Source: Acidobacteriota bacterium (lineage in GTDB: Bacteria; Acidobacteriota; Terriglobia; Terriglobales; SCQP01). Taken from it: a stretch of DNA of 64,000 bases. This document shows positions 1 through 61,069 of this stretch, piece by piece. A program made the position numbers and the translations under genes. The stretch covers positions 14,886 through 78,885 of the forward strand of contig JAKASR010000006.1 of assembly GCA_021818955.1 (NCBI GenBank). The letters are read 5' to 3'. The notes under the pieces were generated by a model. The model saw only the letters and a program-made list of their open reading frames with translations, did no database searches and had not been told where the DNA came from. Position 1 is the stretch's first letter, and every line of letters begins with the position of its first letter.

Positions 1-58
1 GTTTCGGCCGGACTTTTGCGAAAGCGTCAGCGCCTAAAAGTAAAAGCGGCCGTGCCGC
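1..58 (+). repeat. Dispersed intergenic repeat, copy A (3' 58 nt of the core; truncated by the window edge)
   Basis: nt 1-58 align without gaps to 33811-33868 and 57437-57494 with only a few substitutions. It ends in the shared terminus AGTAAAAGCGGCCGTGCCGC. Confidence 0.9.
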
Positions 59-2900: not shown

Positions 2901-4133
2901 GTGTTCAAGAAGCTCGATGCGTGGTGGCGAGACGCGCTGGTCTGCGGACTATGCGCCGCCAGCCTTTACGCCGCTCCTGCCCGCCCGCACACGCCGCTGA
3001 AACAACTGCTGAACAGCCAGCTTGAACAGCGCGGTTTCTGGCACTTTTTCAACCTGGAATACGGTCCGGCGCTGCGCGACTTTCAGGAATTAGCCCGCCG
3101 CCGGCCCTGGGATGCCTCCGTATGGAACCATATCACCCAGACGCTGATCTACCGGGAGATGTACCGCATCGGGGCGCTCGAAACTCAGCTCTATAGCCAT
3201 GGCAACCCGTTTCTAAAGACCAAGCTGCCGCCGCCCAGTCCGGCGGCGCTGAAAGCGATTTTGAGCGCCAACCGGCGCGCCATGCTGCTGGCGCGGCAGG
3301 TGCTGGTCCATAAACCTCACGATGCCTTTGCCCGTTACAACGAGGCCGTCGCCTGGGCGCAACGCGGCACCTATTATTTCGTGCTGCACAAATCGTACTT
3401 TGAAGCCTTGCGTGATGCTTTGCGGGCGCGCCATCAGGCCAGGCTGGCGGAAAAATACGATCCCCATTTTGTGGACCCGAGGCTGATACTCGGGGTGCAG
3501 CAATTTGTTGCCGCAAGCCTGCCCTGGTCGGTCAAACTGCTGGCCCATTTCGTCGGTTACAGCGGCAGCAAGAAGAAGGGAATTGCCGAAATTCAAGACG
3601 TCATCGCGCATGGCGAAAATGCGCGCACCGACGCCCGGGTGCTGTTGGTCGTGATTTACCGCCGGGAAGGTTTAAACCGCCAGGTGCTGCCCATTCTGGG
3701 CTGGCTGCAGCAGCATTATCCGCGTAATGTGCTGTTTGCGGTCGAACAGGCCGAAGCGACCGAGGCGGCCGGGCTGCACGAGCAGGCGCGGAAGGAATAT
3801 CACGCCATCTTGCAGCGCGCCGCCGCCCATGCTCCCGGCTATGAAAACGCGCCGCTCGACAAAGTATGGTACGACCTGGGCGGCATCAATCGGCTGTATT
3901 CGCGCTGGGGCGCGGCTTTGGCCGATTACCGCCGTTCCGCCCAGGTTTCGCATGCGGAACTGCGTTACCGGCAGGCCGCCGAACTGGCCGCCGGGCAGAT
4001 GCAAGACATGCTGGGCAACCGCAGCGCCGCTCTGGTCGCATATAAAAACTGCCTCGCGCTGGGAGAAAGCCCCGCCGCCAAGGCCGCTCAACATTACTTG
4101 CAGCACCCTTACCGGCGGCAGCATAAAAGCTAA
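2901..4133 (+). CDS. Hypothetical secreted helical-repeat (TPR-like) protein
   Basis: 410-aa ORF with a GTG start. N-terminal hydrophobic signal-like segment (LVCGLCAASLYAAPA). Alpha-helical repeat-like composition and no catalytic motif recognised. Confidence 0.5.
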   Translation: MFKKLDAWWRDALVCGLCAASLYAAPARPHTPLKQLLNSQLEQRGFWHFFNLEYGPALRDFQELARRRPWDASVWNHITQTLIYREMYRIGALETQLYSHGNPFLKTKLPPPSPAALKAILSANRRAMLLARQVLVHKPHDAFARYNEAVAWAQRGTYYFVLHKSYFEALRDALRARHQARLAEKYDPHFVDPRLILGVQQFVAASLPWSVKLLAHFVGYSGSKKKGIAEIQDVIAHGENARTDARVLLVVIYRREGLNRQVLPILGWLQQHYPRNVLFAVEQAEATEAAGLHEQARKEYHAILQRAAAHAPGYENAPLDKVWYDLGGINRLYSRWGAALADYRRSAQVSHAELRYRQAAELAAGQMQDMLGNRSAALVAYKNCLALGESPAAKAAQHYLQHPYRRQHKS

Positions 4134-4140
4134 GCGATGC

Positions 4141-4180
4141 AGTAAGAGCGGCCGAGCCGCTTCGACTCGGCCGATAACGC
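4141..4180. repeat. REP-like hairpin built from the two termini of the dispersed repeat in inverted arrangement
   Basis: 4141-4160 AGTAAGAGCGGCCGAGCCGC matches the repeat right terminus (33849-33868) at 19/20. 4166-4180 CTCGGCCGATAACGC is the reverse complement of the left terminus GCGTTAACGGCCGAG (14/15). CGGCCGAG (4149-4156) pairs with CTCGGCCG (4166-4173). Confidence 0.7.
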
Positions 4181-4220
4181 TTGACGGCGACGCGGCGGGC
4201 ACTACTGATATGATCCTGCT

Positions 4221-9933: not shown

Positions 9934-9945
9934 GCTAGATTTCTA

Positions 9946-10083
9946 GCGGCACGGCCGCTTTTTATTTTGAGGCACCGATTCCATAGTGCGGAAATAAGAG
10001 GCAGCCGGCATTTGAACCGCCTAGGGCGGACATCTCGGCCTGCCCTCCAGGCATGCACTACGGTTCGCCTCGGCCGTTAACGC
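9946..10083 (-). repeat. Inverted, diverged copy of the dispersed repeat (both termini retained)
   Basis: The reverse complement of 9946-9962 is AAAAGCGGCCGTGCCGC, an exact 17-nt match to the right terminus. The reverse complement of 10069-10083 is GCGTTAACGGCCGAG, an exact 15-nt match to the left terminus. The internal CATGCCTG...GGCCG block is shared with 57283-57297. Confidence 0.7.
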
Positions 10084-10266
10084 CTACTATCGTTAAGATG
10101 AGAAATTCGGCATTTAAGGTGCTGGAAGCTGCGGATTTTACTCCTGAATTTACGCGACCCTCCAGCTTTGATCCAATCCCAACTGCAAGAGTTTGCAGTG
10201 TACATAACGGCCGTTTCATTTACAAATTCCGGACATGCGACTTGAAGAGTCATGGAAAAATGAAAC

Positions 10267-54467: not shown

Positions 54468-57113
54468 ATGGCTAGTCCTGGTTCTGAAAAATTCGCCCAT
54501 CCCCGCCATGCCGCGGCTAGTCCAGTGGCGCTGTCGGCCGCCTCCGGCGTCGCTCCCACGGCTACGGAACCATATGGGTTAATTCAAGTCTCGCTTCCGG
54601 GCGCCTCCGGCTCAGGTTATACGTACCGCTTTCCCTCTGATTTATCGCCCCAACCCGGAATTCGTGTCTTAGTGCCCTGGCGCAATCAACAGCGGGTCGG
54701 CGTGGTGCTCGGCACGATTTCAGCGTTGCCGGAAGGTTTGCTGGCGGAACAAGTGCGCCCGATCGCCTGCATCCTCGATTTCGAGCCGTTGTTGATTCCG
54801 GAATTGCTCGAACTATTACGCTGGGCGGCGGATTATTACCACGCCGGATTGGGCGAGCTGCTGCAATGCGCCTTGCCGCCGGATCTGATCCGGCCGCGCC
54901 GTTTAGCCTTGACCGAGGCGGGAAGGGAAGAACTGAAGCGGCTTGCTGCGGAAGTCGCGCCGTCGCAGTTGGCTCTGCCGGCGCTGAATGCCCCGGTCGC
55001 CGCTCTCGTCAATCCCACGCTGGCCTGCCTCTCCGCCGCCGAGCGCGGACTGGCGCTGCCCGGAGCGCTTCGCCGGCGCGCCTTCACCGCGCTGGATTTA
55101 CAACGCGCCATCCGCCGCGGCTGGATCGCCTGCGTCGAGCAGGAGCCGCGCCGGCGTTCCGCGCCCACCACACTCTACTATCGAATTACCGATCGCCCCT
55201 GGAGCGAACCGTTGAGCCCGGCGCGCGTGCGCGTGCGCAACGCATTGCAGGCCGCTGGCGGCGAACTCAACGCGGCGGAGTTAGCCGGCATCGCTTCTAA
55301 TACCGTGTTGCGCGCGCTGCTGCGGCAGCAATATCTGCAAGCCTGTCCGCGCCCCACGCCGCCGCCGGCCCCGGAATGGGAGGCGCGCCCGCGAGTCGTT
55401 CGCCTCAACCCGCCGCAGGCTTGCGCGCTGCATGCGATCGTTGCCGCGCTCGACGCGCTCCCCCCCCCTGGTGTTCCGCTCGGCCGTCCGGCAAAGCCGG
55501 ATTCCGTCCCGGCGCCGCCGGTCTTTCTGTTGCATGGCGTGACCGGCAGCGGCAAAACCGCCGTCTATCTTGAAGCCATTGCCGCCTGCTTGGCGCGTGG
55601 ACGCGCGGCTCTGCTGCTGGCGCCTGAAATTGGGCTTACGCCGGCGCTCGAAGCCGATTTTGAACAGGCCTTCCCCGGCCAAGTCGCCATCCTGCATTCC
55701 GGCTTAAGCCGCGCCGAACGCAGCGCGGCCTGGTATCGCATCCGCCGGGGCGAAGCCCGGGTCGTGATTGGCACGCGTTCGGCTGTCTTTTCCCCGCTGC
55801 CGAATCCCGGCTTGATAATTGTGGATGAAGAACACGACGCATCTTTTAAGCAGCAAAACTCGCCCCGGTATCATGCGCGCGATCTGGCCTTGGTGCGCGC
55901 CCGCATCCAGGCTGCGGTGGCCGTGCTCGGCTCCGCCACGCCGGCGCTCGAAAGCTATCGCCATGCCCGTGTTGGCAAATATCACCTGCTGGAACTGCCT
56001 CAGCGCGTGATTGCCCGCCCGCTGCCCCGGGTTGAACTGGTCTCGATGCGCGACGCCTTTCGTCAACACTCCCAGGCCGCGCCAGCAGCTTCCGGCCTGC
56101 CGCGTTCCGAGTTGGTCGTCTCCGAGCCTTTGCGTGCCGCCTTGGCGGTCCGCCTGGAACGCGGCGAACAGTCGCTGGTATTGATCAATCGCCGCGGTTA
56201 CGCCCCGGTCGCGCTTTGCCGCGCTTGCGGCCAGGCGCAGGCTTGCCGCGATTGCTCCGCGCCCATGACCTGGCATAAACGCGCCGGCGTTCTGCTCTGC
56301 CATCTCTGCGGCTATTCCCAGCCGCCTCTGCAGACGTGCCCGGCTTGTGGTAGCGAGCATCTGTATTTTCTTGGCATTGGCAGCGAAAAGGTGGAAGAGC
56401 ACCTGCGCCGGCTTTTCCCCGCTGCCCGGCTCGGCCGGCTCGATCGCGATACCGTTCGTGGCCGGCGTGACTTTGCCCGCATCCTTGCCGCCTTCCGCCA
56501 CGGCGAACTGGATATTCTGCTCGGCACACAAATGATCGCCAAGGGACACGACCTGCCCGGCGTCACTCTGGTCGGCGTGATCCAGGCCGATTTGAGCTTG
56601 CTCCTGCCCGATTTCCGGGCTGCCGAGCGCACGTTCCAACTGTTGACCCAGGTGGCCGGACGCGCCGGGCGCGCGGCCTTGCCGGGCGAAGTCTATTTAC
56701 AGACCCTCTTTCCCGAACATTACGCCGTGCGCGCCGCCGCCGCGGCCGATTATTTTGGTTTTTGGCAGCGGGAGTGCCATTTTCGCCGTGCGCTCTCTTA
56801 TCCACCCTTTGCCTCGCTGGCTATGGTCCAATTGCGCGGGCCGCGGGAAGACTCCTTGCGCGCGGCTGCGCTGCAGCTTCGCGAACGGCTGGAAGCGGCG
56901 CGCAAAGCGGAGCAATTGCCGGTCCGCATTCTCGGCCCCGTGCCCGCGCTCGTCGCCCGCCTGAAACGCGAGTATCGCTTCCAGTTGCTGTTAAAATCTC
57001 CGCGCCGTTCCCCGCTGCATCGCCTGTTGGCCCGCCTCAATGCCATGGCCGCGGAGGTGTCACTTGCAGGCGGTAGCTTAATTGTGGATATTGACCCGGT
57101 TACGCTTGATTAA
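54468..57113 (+). CDS. priA: Primosomal replication-restart helicase PriA
   Basis: Walker A HGVTGSGKTAVY. IIVDEEHD. Zn-binding Cys clusters CRACGQAQACRDC...CHLCGY...CPACGS. The start is uncertain (ATG 54468 or GTG 54525). The ORF-track start at 54318 is probably an extension. Confidence 0.9.
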   Translation: MASPGSEKFAHPRHAAASPVALSAASGVAPTATEPYGLIQVSLPGASGSGYTYRFPSDLSPQPGIRVLVPWRNQQRVGVVLGTISALPEGLLAEQVRPIACILDFEPLLIPELLELLRWAADYYHAGLGELLQCALPPDLIRPRRLALTEAGREELKRLAAEVAPSQLALPALNAPVAALVNPTLACLSAAERGLALPGALRRRAFTALDLQRAIRRGWIACVEQEPRRRSAPTTLYYRITDRPWSEPLSPARVRVRNALQAAGGELNAAELAGIASNTVLRALLRQQYLQACPRPTPPPAPEWEARPRVVRLNPPQACALHAIVAALDALPPPGVPLGRPAKPDSVPAPPVFLLHGVTGSGKTAVYLEAIAACLARGRAALLLAPEIGLTPALEADFEQAFPGQVAILHSGLSRAERSAAWYRIRRGEARVVIGTRSAVFSPLPNPGLIIVDEEHDASFKQQNSPRYHARDLALVRARIQAAVAVLGSATPALESYRHARVGKYHLLELPQRVIARPLPRVELVSMRDAFRQHSQAAPAASGLPRSELVVSEPLRAALAVRLERGEQSLVLINRRGYAPVALCRACGQAQACRDCSAPMTWHKRAGVLLCHLCGYSQPPLQTCPACGSEHLYFLGIGSEKVEEHLRRLFPAARLGRLDRDTVRGRRDFARILAAFRHGELDILLGTQMIAKGHDLPGVTLVGVIQADLSLLLPDFRAAERTFQLLTQVAGRAGRAALPGEVYLQTLFPEHYAVRAAAAADYFGFWQRECHFRRALSYPPFASLAMVQLRGPREDSLRAAALQLRERLEAARKAEQLPVRILGPVPALVARLKREYRFQLLLKSPRRSPLHRLLARLNAMAAEVSLAGGSLIVDIDPVTLD

Positions 57114-57197
57114 AAATGTTGATGTCGCGGATATTCCAGGTAATCTTTTTCCCTAAAAGCGTTAACGGCCGAGTCGGGCAGCAGTTTTCGTCATTGG

Positions 57198-57287
57198 CAA
57201 TTTCGGAGAAATTGCCTGCAGCCTGCTCAATTTCGGAGAAATTGCCTGCAGCCTGCTCAATTTCGAAGAAATTGCCTGAAGCCATGC
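57198..57287 (+). repeat. Tandem 30-bp repeat x3 inside copy C, each unit carrying a CAATTTC-GGA-GAAATTG hairpin
   Basis: The unit CAATTTCGGAGAAATTGCCTGCAGCCTGCT occurs at 57198-57227 and 57228-57257 (identical). A third, diverged unit lies at 57258-57287. Copy B has a single unit. Confidence 0.9.
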
Positions 57288-57342
57288 CTGCGGGCCGAAG
57301 CGCGGGTTCCGGTTAGCCCGCGCCTATGAACGACGATACCAA

Positions 57343-57393
57343 GCAATTCCGCAGGAATTGCATCAAGCAAGCCGGCAATTCCGCAGGAATTGC
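57343..57393 (+). repeat. Two copies of the 19-nt hairpin GCAATTCC-GCA-GGAATTGC, 32 nt apart
   Basis: Identical 19-mers at 57343-57361 and 57375-57393. This module is absent from copy B. Confidence 0.9.
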
Positions 57394-57477
57394 GTCCGGC
57401 AATGCCCGGCATCCATGAGTATTCGCCATGCGTCCGGTTTCGGCCGGACCTTTGCGAAAGCGTCAGCGCCTAAAAGT

Positions 57478-57506
57478 AAAAGCGGCCGTGCCGCTTTTCT
57501 TGTTTT
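57478..57506. terminator. Bidirectional terminator-like hairpin formed by the repeat right terminus
   Basis: AAAAGCGGC-CGT-GCCGCTTTT followed by CTTGTTTTC. It sits between the priA stop (57113) and the M50 protease stop (57506). Confidence 0.55.
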
Positions 57507-58447
57507 CAAACTAGACGAACCGGGGCCAGCACCATGGTCAAGGCGAGAATAATAGCCCCAGCCAGCGCCAGACTGAGGCGCAAAGGCCCTAAATCTTCCC
57601 CGCGAGGCACGCCTGGATGTTGTCCGCGCATCAGCAGGATAAATCCCGCCCAGATGTACCAGCCCTGCCAATAACGCCATCCCGCCCATACCAACGCTGG
57701 CGCCAGCAGCCAGGATGTCCAACGGTGCAGCCGGGGCGCCAGCGCGTAAAGAATATGGCCGCCGTCCAATTGTCCGGCCGGGATCAAATTCAGCATGGTG
57801 GCCATGAAGCCGAACCAGGCGGCACGGGCTACGGGGGATAAATAGATTTGCCCGGCCGCCATGCCGGGATGAGCCACCCACAATATGGCGTGTGCCACCG
57901 CCGGCCAGCCGAAGGCCATTCCGCTGGCGTTGGTCGGAAAGGGTTTCAGCACCGATTGCCGCAATCCTAGCCAGAAATAAGGTACAGCCACTACGAATCC
58001 GGCCAGCGGGCCGGCGATGCCGACGTCCAGCAGTGCCCGGCGATGGGGAAAAGGAGAATGAATGCGTATAAACGCGCCTAGCGTGCCCAATAGCGTGGGC
58101 GCCGGAAGAAAATAAGGTAGCGAGGCGGCCATCCCGTACTGGCGGCAGGCAAGATAGTGTCCCATCTCGTGCGCCAGCAGTATCAACAGCAGCGTCGAGC
58201 AGAACGGCAGCCCCTGCATTAGCAGGCCGGGATGATGCCAAGCCCATAGAAACGGAAATACGTCATTGAAAGTGCGAAACGGCGGGCGCAGGCGGTTGAA
58301 ATTGTATTGCAGGCGCGCGCCCACAACCAGCATGGATACGCTGGTCAGCAGCAGCAGCAATGCCGGTACGAGCCGGGGCGCGTGGTATTCCGCCGGCCAT
58401 AAAGGCAAGTTGGGATAGGGAATATAAGTTTCGCGGTCGGCCTGCAT
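57506..58447 (-). CDS. Site-2 protease family (M50) membrane metalloprotease
   Basis: HExxH in LLAHEMGHYLACRQYG. Multi-TM. Downstream NLIPAGQLDGGH motif. Confidence 0.85.
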   Translation of the reverse strand: MQADRETYIPYPNLPLWPAEYHAPRLVPALLLLLTSVSMLVVGARLQYNFNRLRPPFRTFNDVFPFLWAWHHPGLLMQGLPFCSTLLLILLAHEMGHYLACRQYGMAASLPYFLPAPTLLGTLGAFIRIHSPFPHRRALLDVGIAGPLAGFVVAVPYFWLGLRQSVLKPFPTNASGMAFGWPAVAHAILWVAHPGMAAGQIYLSPVARAAWFGFMATMLNLIPAGQLDGGHILYALAPRLHRWTSWLLAPALVWAGWRYWQGWYIWAGFILLMRGQHPGVPRGEDLGPLRLSLALAGAIILALTMVLAPVRLV

Positions 58448-59823: not shown

Positions 59824-59880
59824 GAAAGTGTATTGGCCCGAGTCGGACAGTCGTTCATTTCCGCCCGGCTTGGCAATCTC
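59824..59880 (+). repeat. Degenerate partial copy of the repeat left module
   Basis: GAAAGTGTATTGGCCCGAGTCGGACAG...TTGGCAATCTC compared with AAAAGCGTTAACGGCCGAGTCGGGCAG...TTGGCAATTTC (57155-57204). The GCCGAGTCGG(G/A)CAG block matches 13/15. Confidence 0.45.
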
Positions 59881-61002: not shown

Positions 61003-61069
61003 CATCCATGAGTATTCGCCATGCGTCCGGTTTCGGCCGGGACCTTTGCGAAAGCGTCAGCGCCTAAAG
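61003..61069 (+). repeat. Dispersed intergenic repeat, copy D (core only, 3'-truncated, 1-nt insertion)
   Basis: ATCCATGAGTATTCGCCATGCGTCCGGTTTCGGCCGGGACCTTTGCGAAAGCGTCAGCGCCTAAAG matches 57411-57476 apart from one extra G. It begins 5 nt after the mqn stop and ends 5 nt before the rhodanese stop. Confidence 0.9.

Follow-up and report, generated by a model that had tools for sequence, protein, structure and literature searches.

A mosaic family of hairpin-rich intergenic repeats in an acidobacterial genome

A composite element in the spacers of a core chromosomal region

The 64,000-nt stretch of Acidobacteriota DNA analysed here (the window) is a core chromosomal region carrying rpsI, rpsB, tsf, pyrH, frr, ispH, lon, priA and an exopolysaccharide cluster, and its intergenic spacers contain a repeat whose 84-nt core had been noted at four places in an initial annotation. 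The four core copies lie where they had been placed and are far above chance expectation; neither half of the core was matched in any of 100 dinucleotide-preserving shuffles of the window. Taking the copy at 57411-57494 as the reference, the copy at 33785-33868 differs by four substitutions, two in each half, the copy at 1-58, which is cut by the window edge, differs by one, and the copy at 61003/4-61069 has one extra G and is without the 3' hairpin. Once gene-caller artefacts are discounted, all copies fall between genes. The repeat had been seen correctly but defined too narrowly, as the 84 nt are only the last two modules (termed E1 and T) of a mosaic that measures 190-350 nt when complete. 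We think it probable that the core is the 3' end of a lineage-specific, non-autonomous, multi-copy and non-coding mosaic intergenic repeat resembling the BOX and BIME elements of other bacteria.

Repeat searches and alignment revealed that the copies at 33647-33868 (222 nt) and 57156-57494 (339 nt) are homologous over their entire length, expansions of tandem units excepted. The module order is constant, running A, B (zero to six units), C, D (zero to three units), E1 and T, and nearly every module is a hairpin or a palindrome (Table 1). Modules also occur independently of each other: we found E1 alone, E1-T alone, A-B alone, T alone, and A-B5-C-T without E1. The palindromes of the B and D arrays are represented in the 57156-57494 copy by the 17-mers CAATTTCGGAGAAATTG and CAATTCCGCAGGAATTG, respectively. 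Inside elements their arms are complementary in 24 of 24 instances, 17 with a T..A and seven with a C..G pair and none mixed, such that B arms always read CAATTTC/GAAATTG (17 instances) and D arms always CAATTCC/GGAATTG (seven instances); the central triplet is variable (GGA, GAA, GCG, AAA, GCA, GTA). The start of A and module T are themselves related, and pairing between them (AAGCG..ACGGCCG with CGGCCGT..CGCTT) would give an imperfect terminal inverted repeat.

Both hairpins that had been claimed for the core exist, although the first extends further than described, as a longer imperfect hairpin (TTCGC..GTCCGGT, TTCG, GCCGGAC..GCGAA, the 5' arm opening with TTCGCC). The core also holds a small hairpin, GCG-TCAG-CGC, an A-rich tract, CCTAAAAGTAAAA, and the terminal hairpin GCGGC-CGT-GCCGC. 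The T-run behind this last hairpin, initially counted as part of the core, is supplied by the flank of the copy ending at 57494 only. Similarly, the statement that all copies lie on the plus strand holds for the four good copies but not for a degenerate copy at 9945-10085. No Rfam family matched anywhere in the window at the gathering score, and at E<=10 the region 57100-57520 gave nothing meaningful (best score 14.9 bits against a cutoff of 45); five motif strings of the element had no occurrence in the searchable full-text literature. The family, unrecognised when first noticed, is real, abundant and previously undescribed.

Table 1 Modules of the repeat, with their positions in the copy at 57156-57494, and copies in the window and in fetched loci of the source genome (L-numbers)
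Feature	Position	Strand	Sequence or context
Module A	57156-57197	+	AAGCGTTAACGGCCGAGTCGGRCAGCAGTTTTCGTC
Module B	57198-57283 (3 x 30 nt)	+	0-6 tandem units, 29-30 nt each; palindrome CAATTTC-N3-GAAATTG
Module C	57284-57343	+	Hairpin GCGCGGG..CCCGCGC, then CCTATKAACGAC
Module D	57344-57407 (2 units)	+	0-3 tandem units, 32 nt each; palindrome CAATTCC-N3-GGAATTG
Module E1	57411-57473	+	ATCCATGAG..GCGCCTAAAAGT; ~36-nt imperfect palindrome and small hairpin
Module T	57474-57494	+	AAAAGCGGCCGWGCCGC; GC hairpin, ~21 nt
Full A-B3-C-D2-E1-T	57156-57494	+	Between convergent priA and M50 protease genes
Core first noted (E1 + T)	57411-57494	+	
Full A-B1-C-E1-T	33647-33868	+	Between two minus-strand ORFs
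E1 3' half + T	1-58	+	Tail of a full A-B1-C-E1-T at L019 5619-5838
Solo E1, extra G, no T	61003-61069	+	Between convergent radical-SAM (MqnC/CofH-like) and rhodanese-like genes
Degenerate copy	9945-10085	-	A-like end 10057-10085; T-like end 9945-9973 (GCCTCAAAATAAAAAGCGGCCGTGCCGC on the - strand)
T-like hairpin AGTAAGAGCGGCCGAGCCGC fused to inverted A start CGACTCGGCCGATAACGCTT	4141-4182	+	Between two + strand genes
Weak A-like stretch	59825-59856	+	72% identity to module A; 5' region of radical-SAM gene
Weak match to E1 5' half	31350-31382	-	76% complementary; not recovered by nhmmer
A + part of C	L007 12166-12245		
A-C-E1-T	L007 16109-16299		Between MoxR and DUF58 genes
A-B5-C-T without E1	L007 19837-20099		
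Full copy	L019 520-708		
T alone	L019 2398-2421		
E1-T alone	L011 5240		
A-B3 alone	L011 16539		

The copies in the window adjoin their neighbours closely. The A end of the 33647-33868 copy is 12 nt from the start codon of a 113-aa open reading frame (ORF; 33293-33634), and on its other side a 679-aa minus-strand ORF (33837-35876) runs 32 nt into T and E1 and stops at an internal TAG, its last ~10 codons and its stop codon being borrowed from the repeat. The full form of the 1-58 copy begins 162 nt to the left of the window, on the stop codon of a plus-strand 143-aa gene, and the solo E1 at 61003-61069 occupies almost the entire spacer between convergent stop codons, with 4-5 nt left over. At 4141-4182 the T-like hairpin and the inverted A start together make one long hairpin. 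Judging from sequence, the stretch at 59825-59856 may be an old fragment or a chance match, and that at 31350-31382 is probably a very old fragment or chance.

Two further features of the window lie beside these copies. Between the first copy and the 3' end of the H+-pyrophosphatase gene, positions 98-135 form a strong, symmetric terminator-like hairpin (AAAAAGAGCGGGCGTTGCGCCCGCTCTTTTTGC) that is unrelated in sequence to module T. The region 33293-54279 comprises about 20 consecutive minus-strand ORFs with almost no spacers, including the exopolysaccharide cluster (Wzy-like, several GT2/GT4, sugar transferase, chain-length ATPase and polysaccharide export genes); apart from the 33647-33868 copy near its edge, the block is free of repeat copies, as would suit an element that requires free intergenic space.

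Further copies and variation in the source genome and a relative

The M50 protease adjoining the core is identical to a protein of the metagenome-assembled genome (MAG) GCA_027357485.1 (Acidobacteriota; contig DAHVUN010000017.1), and its homologues from named sources are mostly labelled Terriglobales. We surveyed about 127 kb of this genome, consisting of the window and fetched loci; L007 and L019 extend the source contig on both sides of the window, and L010, L011 and L012 were reached through a protein query made of the element's six-frame translations. These ~127 kb contain about 20 complete or partial copies. An nhmmer profile of E1-T returned 13 strong matches, a few partial ones and one weak minus-strand match (9945-9980). 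L010, L011 and L012 contribute nine more copies, among them E1-T alone, A-B3 alone and a tandem cluster. This cluster, at L011 19762-21452, spans 1.7 kb without a called gene and is built almost wholly of repeat modules: at least three elements stand in tandem, the A start is duplicated, D is present as three units and the middle copy is degenerate.

Beyond the source genome the family appears to be narrowly distributed. An exact 24-mer of the core had no matches in species-representative genomes and none in viral contigs, and matched one short metagenome contig (L001), which indicates a narrow family and a source genome that is not one of those representatives; a plasmid collection gave no blastn match to the element. 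The closest genome by M50 protease is GCA_021789895.1 (Acidobacteria bacterium DBS2-1.bin132), at 74% protein identity. A looser two-anchor pattern recovered three diverged copies from this relative (L013, L014 and L017) in the same A-(B)-C-E1-T order, situated at other loci, upstream of what read from sequence as acetate-kinase-like and PyrR-like N-termini; two of the three are antisense to the adjacent gene. In L013 and L017, module A contains a clean hairpin that seems to change by pairs between copies (the relative's A hairpins are GGACAG-TATTT-CTGTCC, GGATAG-CTTTT-CTGTCC and GGACAGC-ATT-GCTGTCC); at the same position the window genome has a 4-bp stem only (GGAC..GTCC).

Comparison of the two genomes provides the main evidence for spread. 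E1-T copies share 92% identity within the source genome and 85% within the relative, compared with 81% between genomes. The priA/M50 spacer is 392 nt in the source genome and 74 nt, unoccupied, in the relative; the stop-to-stop spacer between the radical-SAM and rhodanese genes is 75 nt in the former and 5 nt, again unoccupied, in the latter; and the gyrA 3' end of the relative is without the element, making a third site that is occupied in the source genome only. Variation is also evident at a single locus, since the ENA assembly of the priA/M50 region (L003) lacks exactly one of the 30-nt B units present in the window and shows one single-nucleotide difference. A Logan contig of SRR13205814 (L004) has one end inside E1 and the other inside T (1-30 and 3539-3564), as is expected of assemblers at a multi-copy repeat. 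The contig L009 ends in the same manner; contigs of this independent assembly break within the repeat, which thus fragments short-read assemblies of the organism.

A larger difference between the genomes lies alongside these sites. A gene block of ~11 kb (window ~61600-72120, continuing into L007 9396-19831) is found between the rhodanese-like gene and gyrA and contains RDD, DUF4129, MoxR, DUF58, SpoIIM-like and RDD genes; in the relative (L005) the gyrA, rhodanese and radical-SAM genes are adjacent, with no such block between them. Repeat copies are located at or near both edges of the block (61003 and L007 19837), and two more are within it.

Folding, gene context and competing explanations

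Using RNAalifold on 12 E1-T copies, we obtained a 14-pair long imperfect hairpin with a TTCG-type loop, the 3-bp hairpin GCG-TCAG-CGC and a 5-bp T hairpin. Pair counts match those of shuffled controls (94.3% paired versus 93.9%; covariation score 0.056 versus 0.051), but the stems are almost invariant and the comparison therefore speaks neither for nor against structure. RNA folding z-scores relative to shuffles were -3.4 and -2.4 on the two strands of the core and -2.6 and -2.3 on those of the 222-nt copy, and the DNA folding z-score of the 339-nt copy was -5.1. The sole clear case of compensation is that of B versus D arms, and it is a difference between modules.

The terminal hairpin had been proposed as a terminator, a description that applies to the opposite strand in every copy and to the plus strand only in the copy ending at 57494. 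On the minus strand each copy presents GCGGCWCGGCCGC and then TTTTACTTTTAGG within conserved sequence, which a scanner scored as terminator-like; read in this direction, T is GCGGCTCGGCCGC followed by TTTTACTTTT, and the arrangement of an intrinsic terminator, a GC-rich hairpin directly before a U-run, is found as GCGGCWCGGCCGC and then TTTTACTTTT. On the plus strand a terminator-like signal occurs only at 57478-57498, where the T-run comes from the flank. When copies chosen via gene fusion are left out, six of nine T-bearing copies lie directly 3' of a minus-strand gene; the six genes ending at T encode the H+-pyrophosphatase, the 679-aa methyltransferase/kinase ORF, the M50 protease, gyrA, a 570-aa ORF in L011 and GTP cyclohydrolase II.

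Relative to the orientation of the element, its flanking genes lie (+,+) in nine cases, (+,-) in six, (-,+) in two and (-,-) in one, indicating that the element usually follows a same-strand gene, like REP, BOX and SPRITE. Copies are also strongly co-oriented, 16 of 17 lying on the strand of the first copy of their contig (P<0.001 by our own binomial estimate, and still <0.001 with the tandem cluster counted once). On the strand of the element, six of seven regions have a negative GC skew. Three possible causes of the co-orientation, namely upstream-gene strand, replication direction and local amplification, cannot be told apart.

We can give almost no credence to a coding role for E1-T, whether as a small protein or as a portable N-terminal peptide (MSIRHASGFGRTFAKASAPKSKSGRAA..), despite some initial signs in its favour. 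The frame ATG AGT ATT CGC.. is open in all full copies, five of seven substitutions among the first copies fall at third codon positions, and gene callers have joined this frame to four protein N-termini (P0121-P0123 and P0125) and the antisense frame to P0124. However, the relative's copies have ATACGT in place of ATGAGT as well as a 1-nt deletion, the frame is shifted in the 61003 copy, and the opposite-strand frame is equally open, on which grounds we rejected a coding function. Moreover, downstream of the element the fused proteins carry signal peptides or Tat motifs of their own, the third-position substitutions coincide with loops or unpaired hairpin positions, and B units are 29 or 30 nt long, contrary to coding. 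The protein fusions are annotation artefacts. In the databases they appear as five proteins (DUF58, GH18, phosphoesterase, S10 carboxypeptidase and glycoamylase) with a false N-terminus, MSIRHASGFGRT.. or antisense AARPLLLLGADAFAK.., preceding a real signal or Tat peptide; gene callers also read through the element at L007 16191-17933.

These observations are probably best explained if the family is spreading, or was spreading until recently, as a non-autonomous element copied in trans. Its copies are scattered through the spacers between genes of core chromosomal regions, as complete elements, partial sets of modules and tandem clusters, and two related acidobacterial MAGs have the family at different loci. 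Among the three options offered in the initial annotation, a REP-like or non-autonomous mobile element fits best, in line with the empty sites in the relative, a likeness within genomes that exceeds that between them, and a mosaic with clusters and variable tandem units. A small RNA (sRNA) finds no support, there being neither covariation nor a promoter-like site. As a tentative candidate for the mobilising agent, we would put forward as most likely an enzyme that recognises single-stranded DNA hairpins, namely a HUH/Y1 transposase of the RAYT (REP-associated tyrosine transposase), TIRYT or IS200/IS605 type, since target-site duplications are absent, terminal inverted repeats are weak, hairpins stand at both ends and co-orientation is strong; the alternative is recombination or gene conversion between copies. 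Once inserted, the element would be passive, like REP, BOX and SPRITE, and would form a structured appendix to the 3' untranslated region (UTR) of the upstream plus-strand gene, while minus-strand genes that approach from the opposite side would find in it a Rho-independent terminator. One may also postulate, though we regard this as doubtful, an actively spreading, strand-polar mosaic that is copied via single-stranded hairpins by a HUH/Y1 enzyme, with B and D arrays that bind protein. A terminator, a protein-binding array and a structured 3' UTR would then arrive with every insertion, which would act as a portable transcription-unit boundary and not as inert junk.

Several observations weigh against a mobile origin and must be set beside this interpretation. 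No insertion event was observed directly, and the genome with the empty sites is a rather distant relative (M50 protease 74% identical), so that the exact element ends cannot be mapped. Across 15 flank pairs there was neither a target-site duplication nor a conserved flanking target, and the terminal inverted repeat matches at only ~12 of 17 positions. Among the annotated genes of the ~127 kb (window, L002, L007, L011, L012 and L019) there is no transposase, integrase or Y1/HUH gene and none of the PF01797 type, and these ~127 kb hold no parent insertion sequence (IS) with matching ends. As covariation is lacking in the E1 and T stems, selection on structure is not demonstrated there, and the covariation of B and D arms is to be counted as one event, each type of unit having multiplied by duplication. 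Finally, co-orientation cannot be disentangled from the orientation of nearby genes, and GC skew gives no consistent picture: along the leftmost ~20 kb of the same contig, where plus-strand copies also occur, it is positive. A small stand-alone HNH endonuclease ORF of 189 aa is encoded on the plus strand at 32212-32781, ~0.9 kb from the 33647 copy and between ComF-family and HIT-family genes; its HNH domain is most like IscB and Cas9d, yet scores 54.6 bits against a cutoff of 175. It has housekeeping surroundings and no evident link to the repeat, and we do not consider the two connected.

The remaining explanations assign the element a function of its own. That it is merely a shared intrinsic terminator, conserved by convergent or duplicated function and with no mobile or repeat biology, seems highly improbable. 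T and the A-rich tract are terminator-like on the minus strand in all copies, with T standing right after minus-strand genes in the six of nine unselected copies counted above, and the 57494 copy is terminator-like on the plus strand as well. The hairpin is only ~21 nt of a conserved mosaic of 190-350 nt, however; E1 occurs without T at 61003, as do A-B and A-C fragments, and many copies sit in plus-strand operons or upstream of plus-strand genes, where a minus-strand terminator is useless. Identity of 92% over 88 nt also far exceeds what termination requires, consistent with the earlier remark that conservation goes beyond the need of a terminator. That the copies are small structured RNA genes or cis-regulatory leaders, each transcribed from its own promoter and acting through its fold, is in our view very unlikely. 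Stable predicted folds (z-scores of -2.3 to -3.4) agree with it, several copies lie directly upstream of same-strand genes (DUF58, GH18, phosphoesterase and glycoamylase), and the A end abuts an other-strand gene start in three or four cases. There is nonetheless no Rfam match, no sigma-70-like promoter site in or beside two full copies, and no covariation above shuffled controls, the stems being nearly invariant; copies occupy all gene configurations, even the gap between convergent stop codons, where 4-5 nt are left over, and modules are freely lost or multiplied, which is hard to square with one functional fold.

An unlikely but more elaborate possibility is a portable regulatory cassette in which the B and D arrays would be operators for a dimeric DNA-binding protein, providing insulation, through the terminator, and regulated expression for neighbouring genes. 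Perfectly conserved arms around a free central triplet, two arm classes that differ by a complementary pair, and a unit period of 29-32 bp, about three helical turns, are all compatible with such operators, but the same pattern would be expected of hairpins in single-stranded nucleic acid. Unit number ranges from 0 to 6 and varies even between assemblies of one locus, and many copies are at convergent junctions with no downstream gene to regulate. The genes fused downstream are mostly secreted hydrolases, although this gene set comes from a biased search that covered fused ORFs only.

Significance and comparison with known repeat systems

Knowledge of small dispersed repeats is good for Proteobacteria and Firmicutes, but they have hardly been studied in Acidobacteriota, which are known mostly from metagenome bins. 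The present family has practical consequences: it breaks assemblies, as contigs of another assembly end within the repeat, and it misleads gene callers, having produced five public proteins with a false N-terminus and one ORF with a borrowed stop codon. The variable number of tandem units is a ready marker for strain typing, and the hairpin ends and two palindrome arrays constitute a defined substrate with which to find the mobilising enzyme in Acidobacteriota.

Among known families, REP, BIME and REPIN elements are mobilised by RAYT, and GTAG- and CGTC-tagged REPs have been distinguished (Di Nocera et al. 2013, PMC3733652). They resemble the repeat described here in being high-copy, GC-rich imperfect palindromes of 20-40 nt (the E1 hairpin is ~36 nt, with 14 predicted pairs), in lying between unidirectional or convergent genes and mostly 3' of coding regions, and in being mosaic without a target-site duplication. 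Unlike REPINs and BIMEs, the modules here are always in direct order, tandem clusters included, with no head-to-head, tail-to-tail or alternating units, and no RAYT is present among the genes annotated in the ~127 kb. There is also no unpaired GTAG or CGTC tag, the CGTC in GCGTCCGG being paired inside the stem GTCCGG/CCGGAC. In the CGTC families the stem is 8-9 bp long and starts with A/T pairs, the loop has 4-5 nt and the tail is CCA (PMC3733652), whereas the inner stem here is 6-7 bp and GC-rich at its base, so that stem and loop sizes do not fit.

Elements with a single-strand transposition chemistry or an IS parent offer partial parallels. Y1 transposases with flanking repeats (TIRYT) have been reported from Acidobacteria (PMC3733652, PMC6006769), and these repeats can form families; the PATEs derived from IS200/IS605 and the TIRYT repeats share with our family the hairpins near both ends, the lack of a duplication and the co-orientation. 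PATEs insert 3' of a conserved short target and have an orientation tied to replication; here no tetra- or penta-nucleotide is conserved at either end, GC skew gave no consistent link of co-orientation to replication direction, and there is no tnpA or TIRYT gene among the annotated genes. IS-derived miniature inverted-repeat elements have 15-30-bp inverted repeats, a duplication and a parent IS; the repeat described here has a weak inverted repeat and no duplication.

SPRITE (PMC3049150) is a dispersed hairpin with a U-rich tract that is terminator-like and enriched by gene 3' ends, much as module T is on the minus strand; it is, however, an 18-bp stand-alone duplex, and T is a 5-6-bp stem that ends a larger mosaic. 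The BOX element of Streptococcus pneumoniae has the structure boxA-boxB(n)-boxC, measures 67-637 bp and varies in length between strains (Croucher et al. 2011, PMC3049150). In both BOX and the acidobacterial family, fixed end modules surround a middle of variable tandem number (the acidobacterial elements measure 67-350 bp), and both form stem-loops, occur in clusters, lie mostly downstream of genes and differ in length between strains (here, between assemblies). They differ in that there is no sequence similarity between them, the phylum and GC content are not the same, the acidobacterial repeat has two distinct tandem modules (B and D) and a terminator-like end module, and the clear terminal inverted repeats and target-site duplications of BOX were not found here. 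Given the lack of homology and of duplications, we do not regard the family as a member of BOX or SPRITE. It belongs to the known class of composite intergenic repeats and opens no new category of biology, and its closest known architecture is that of the pneumococcal BOX element.

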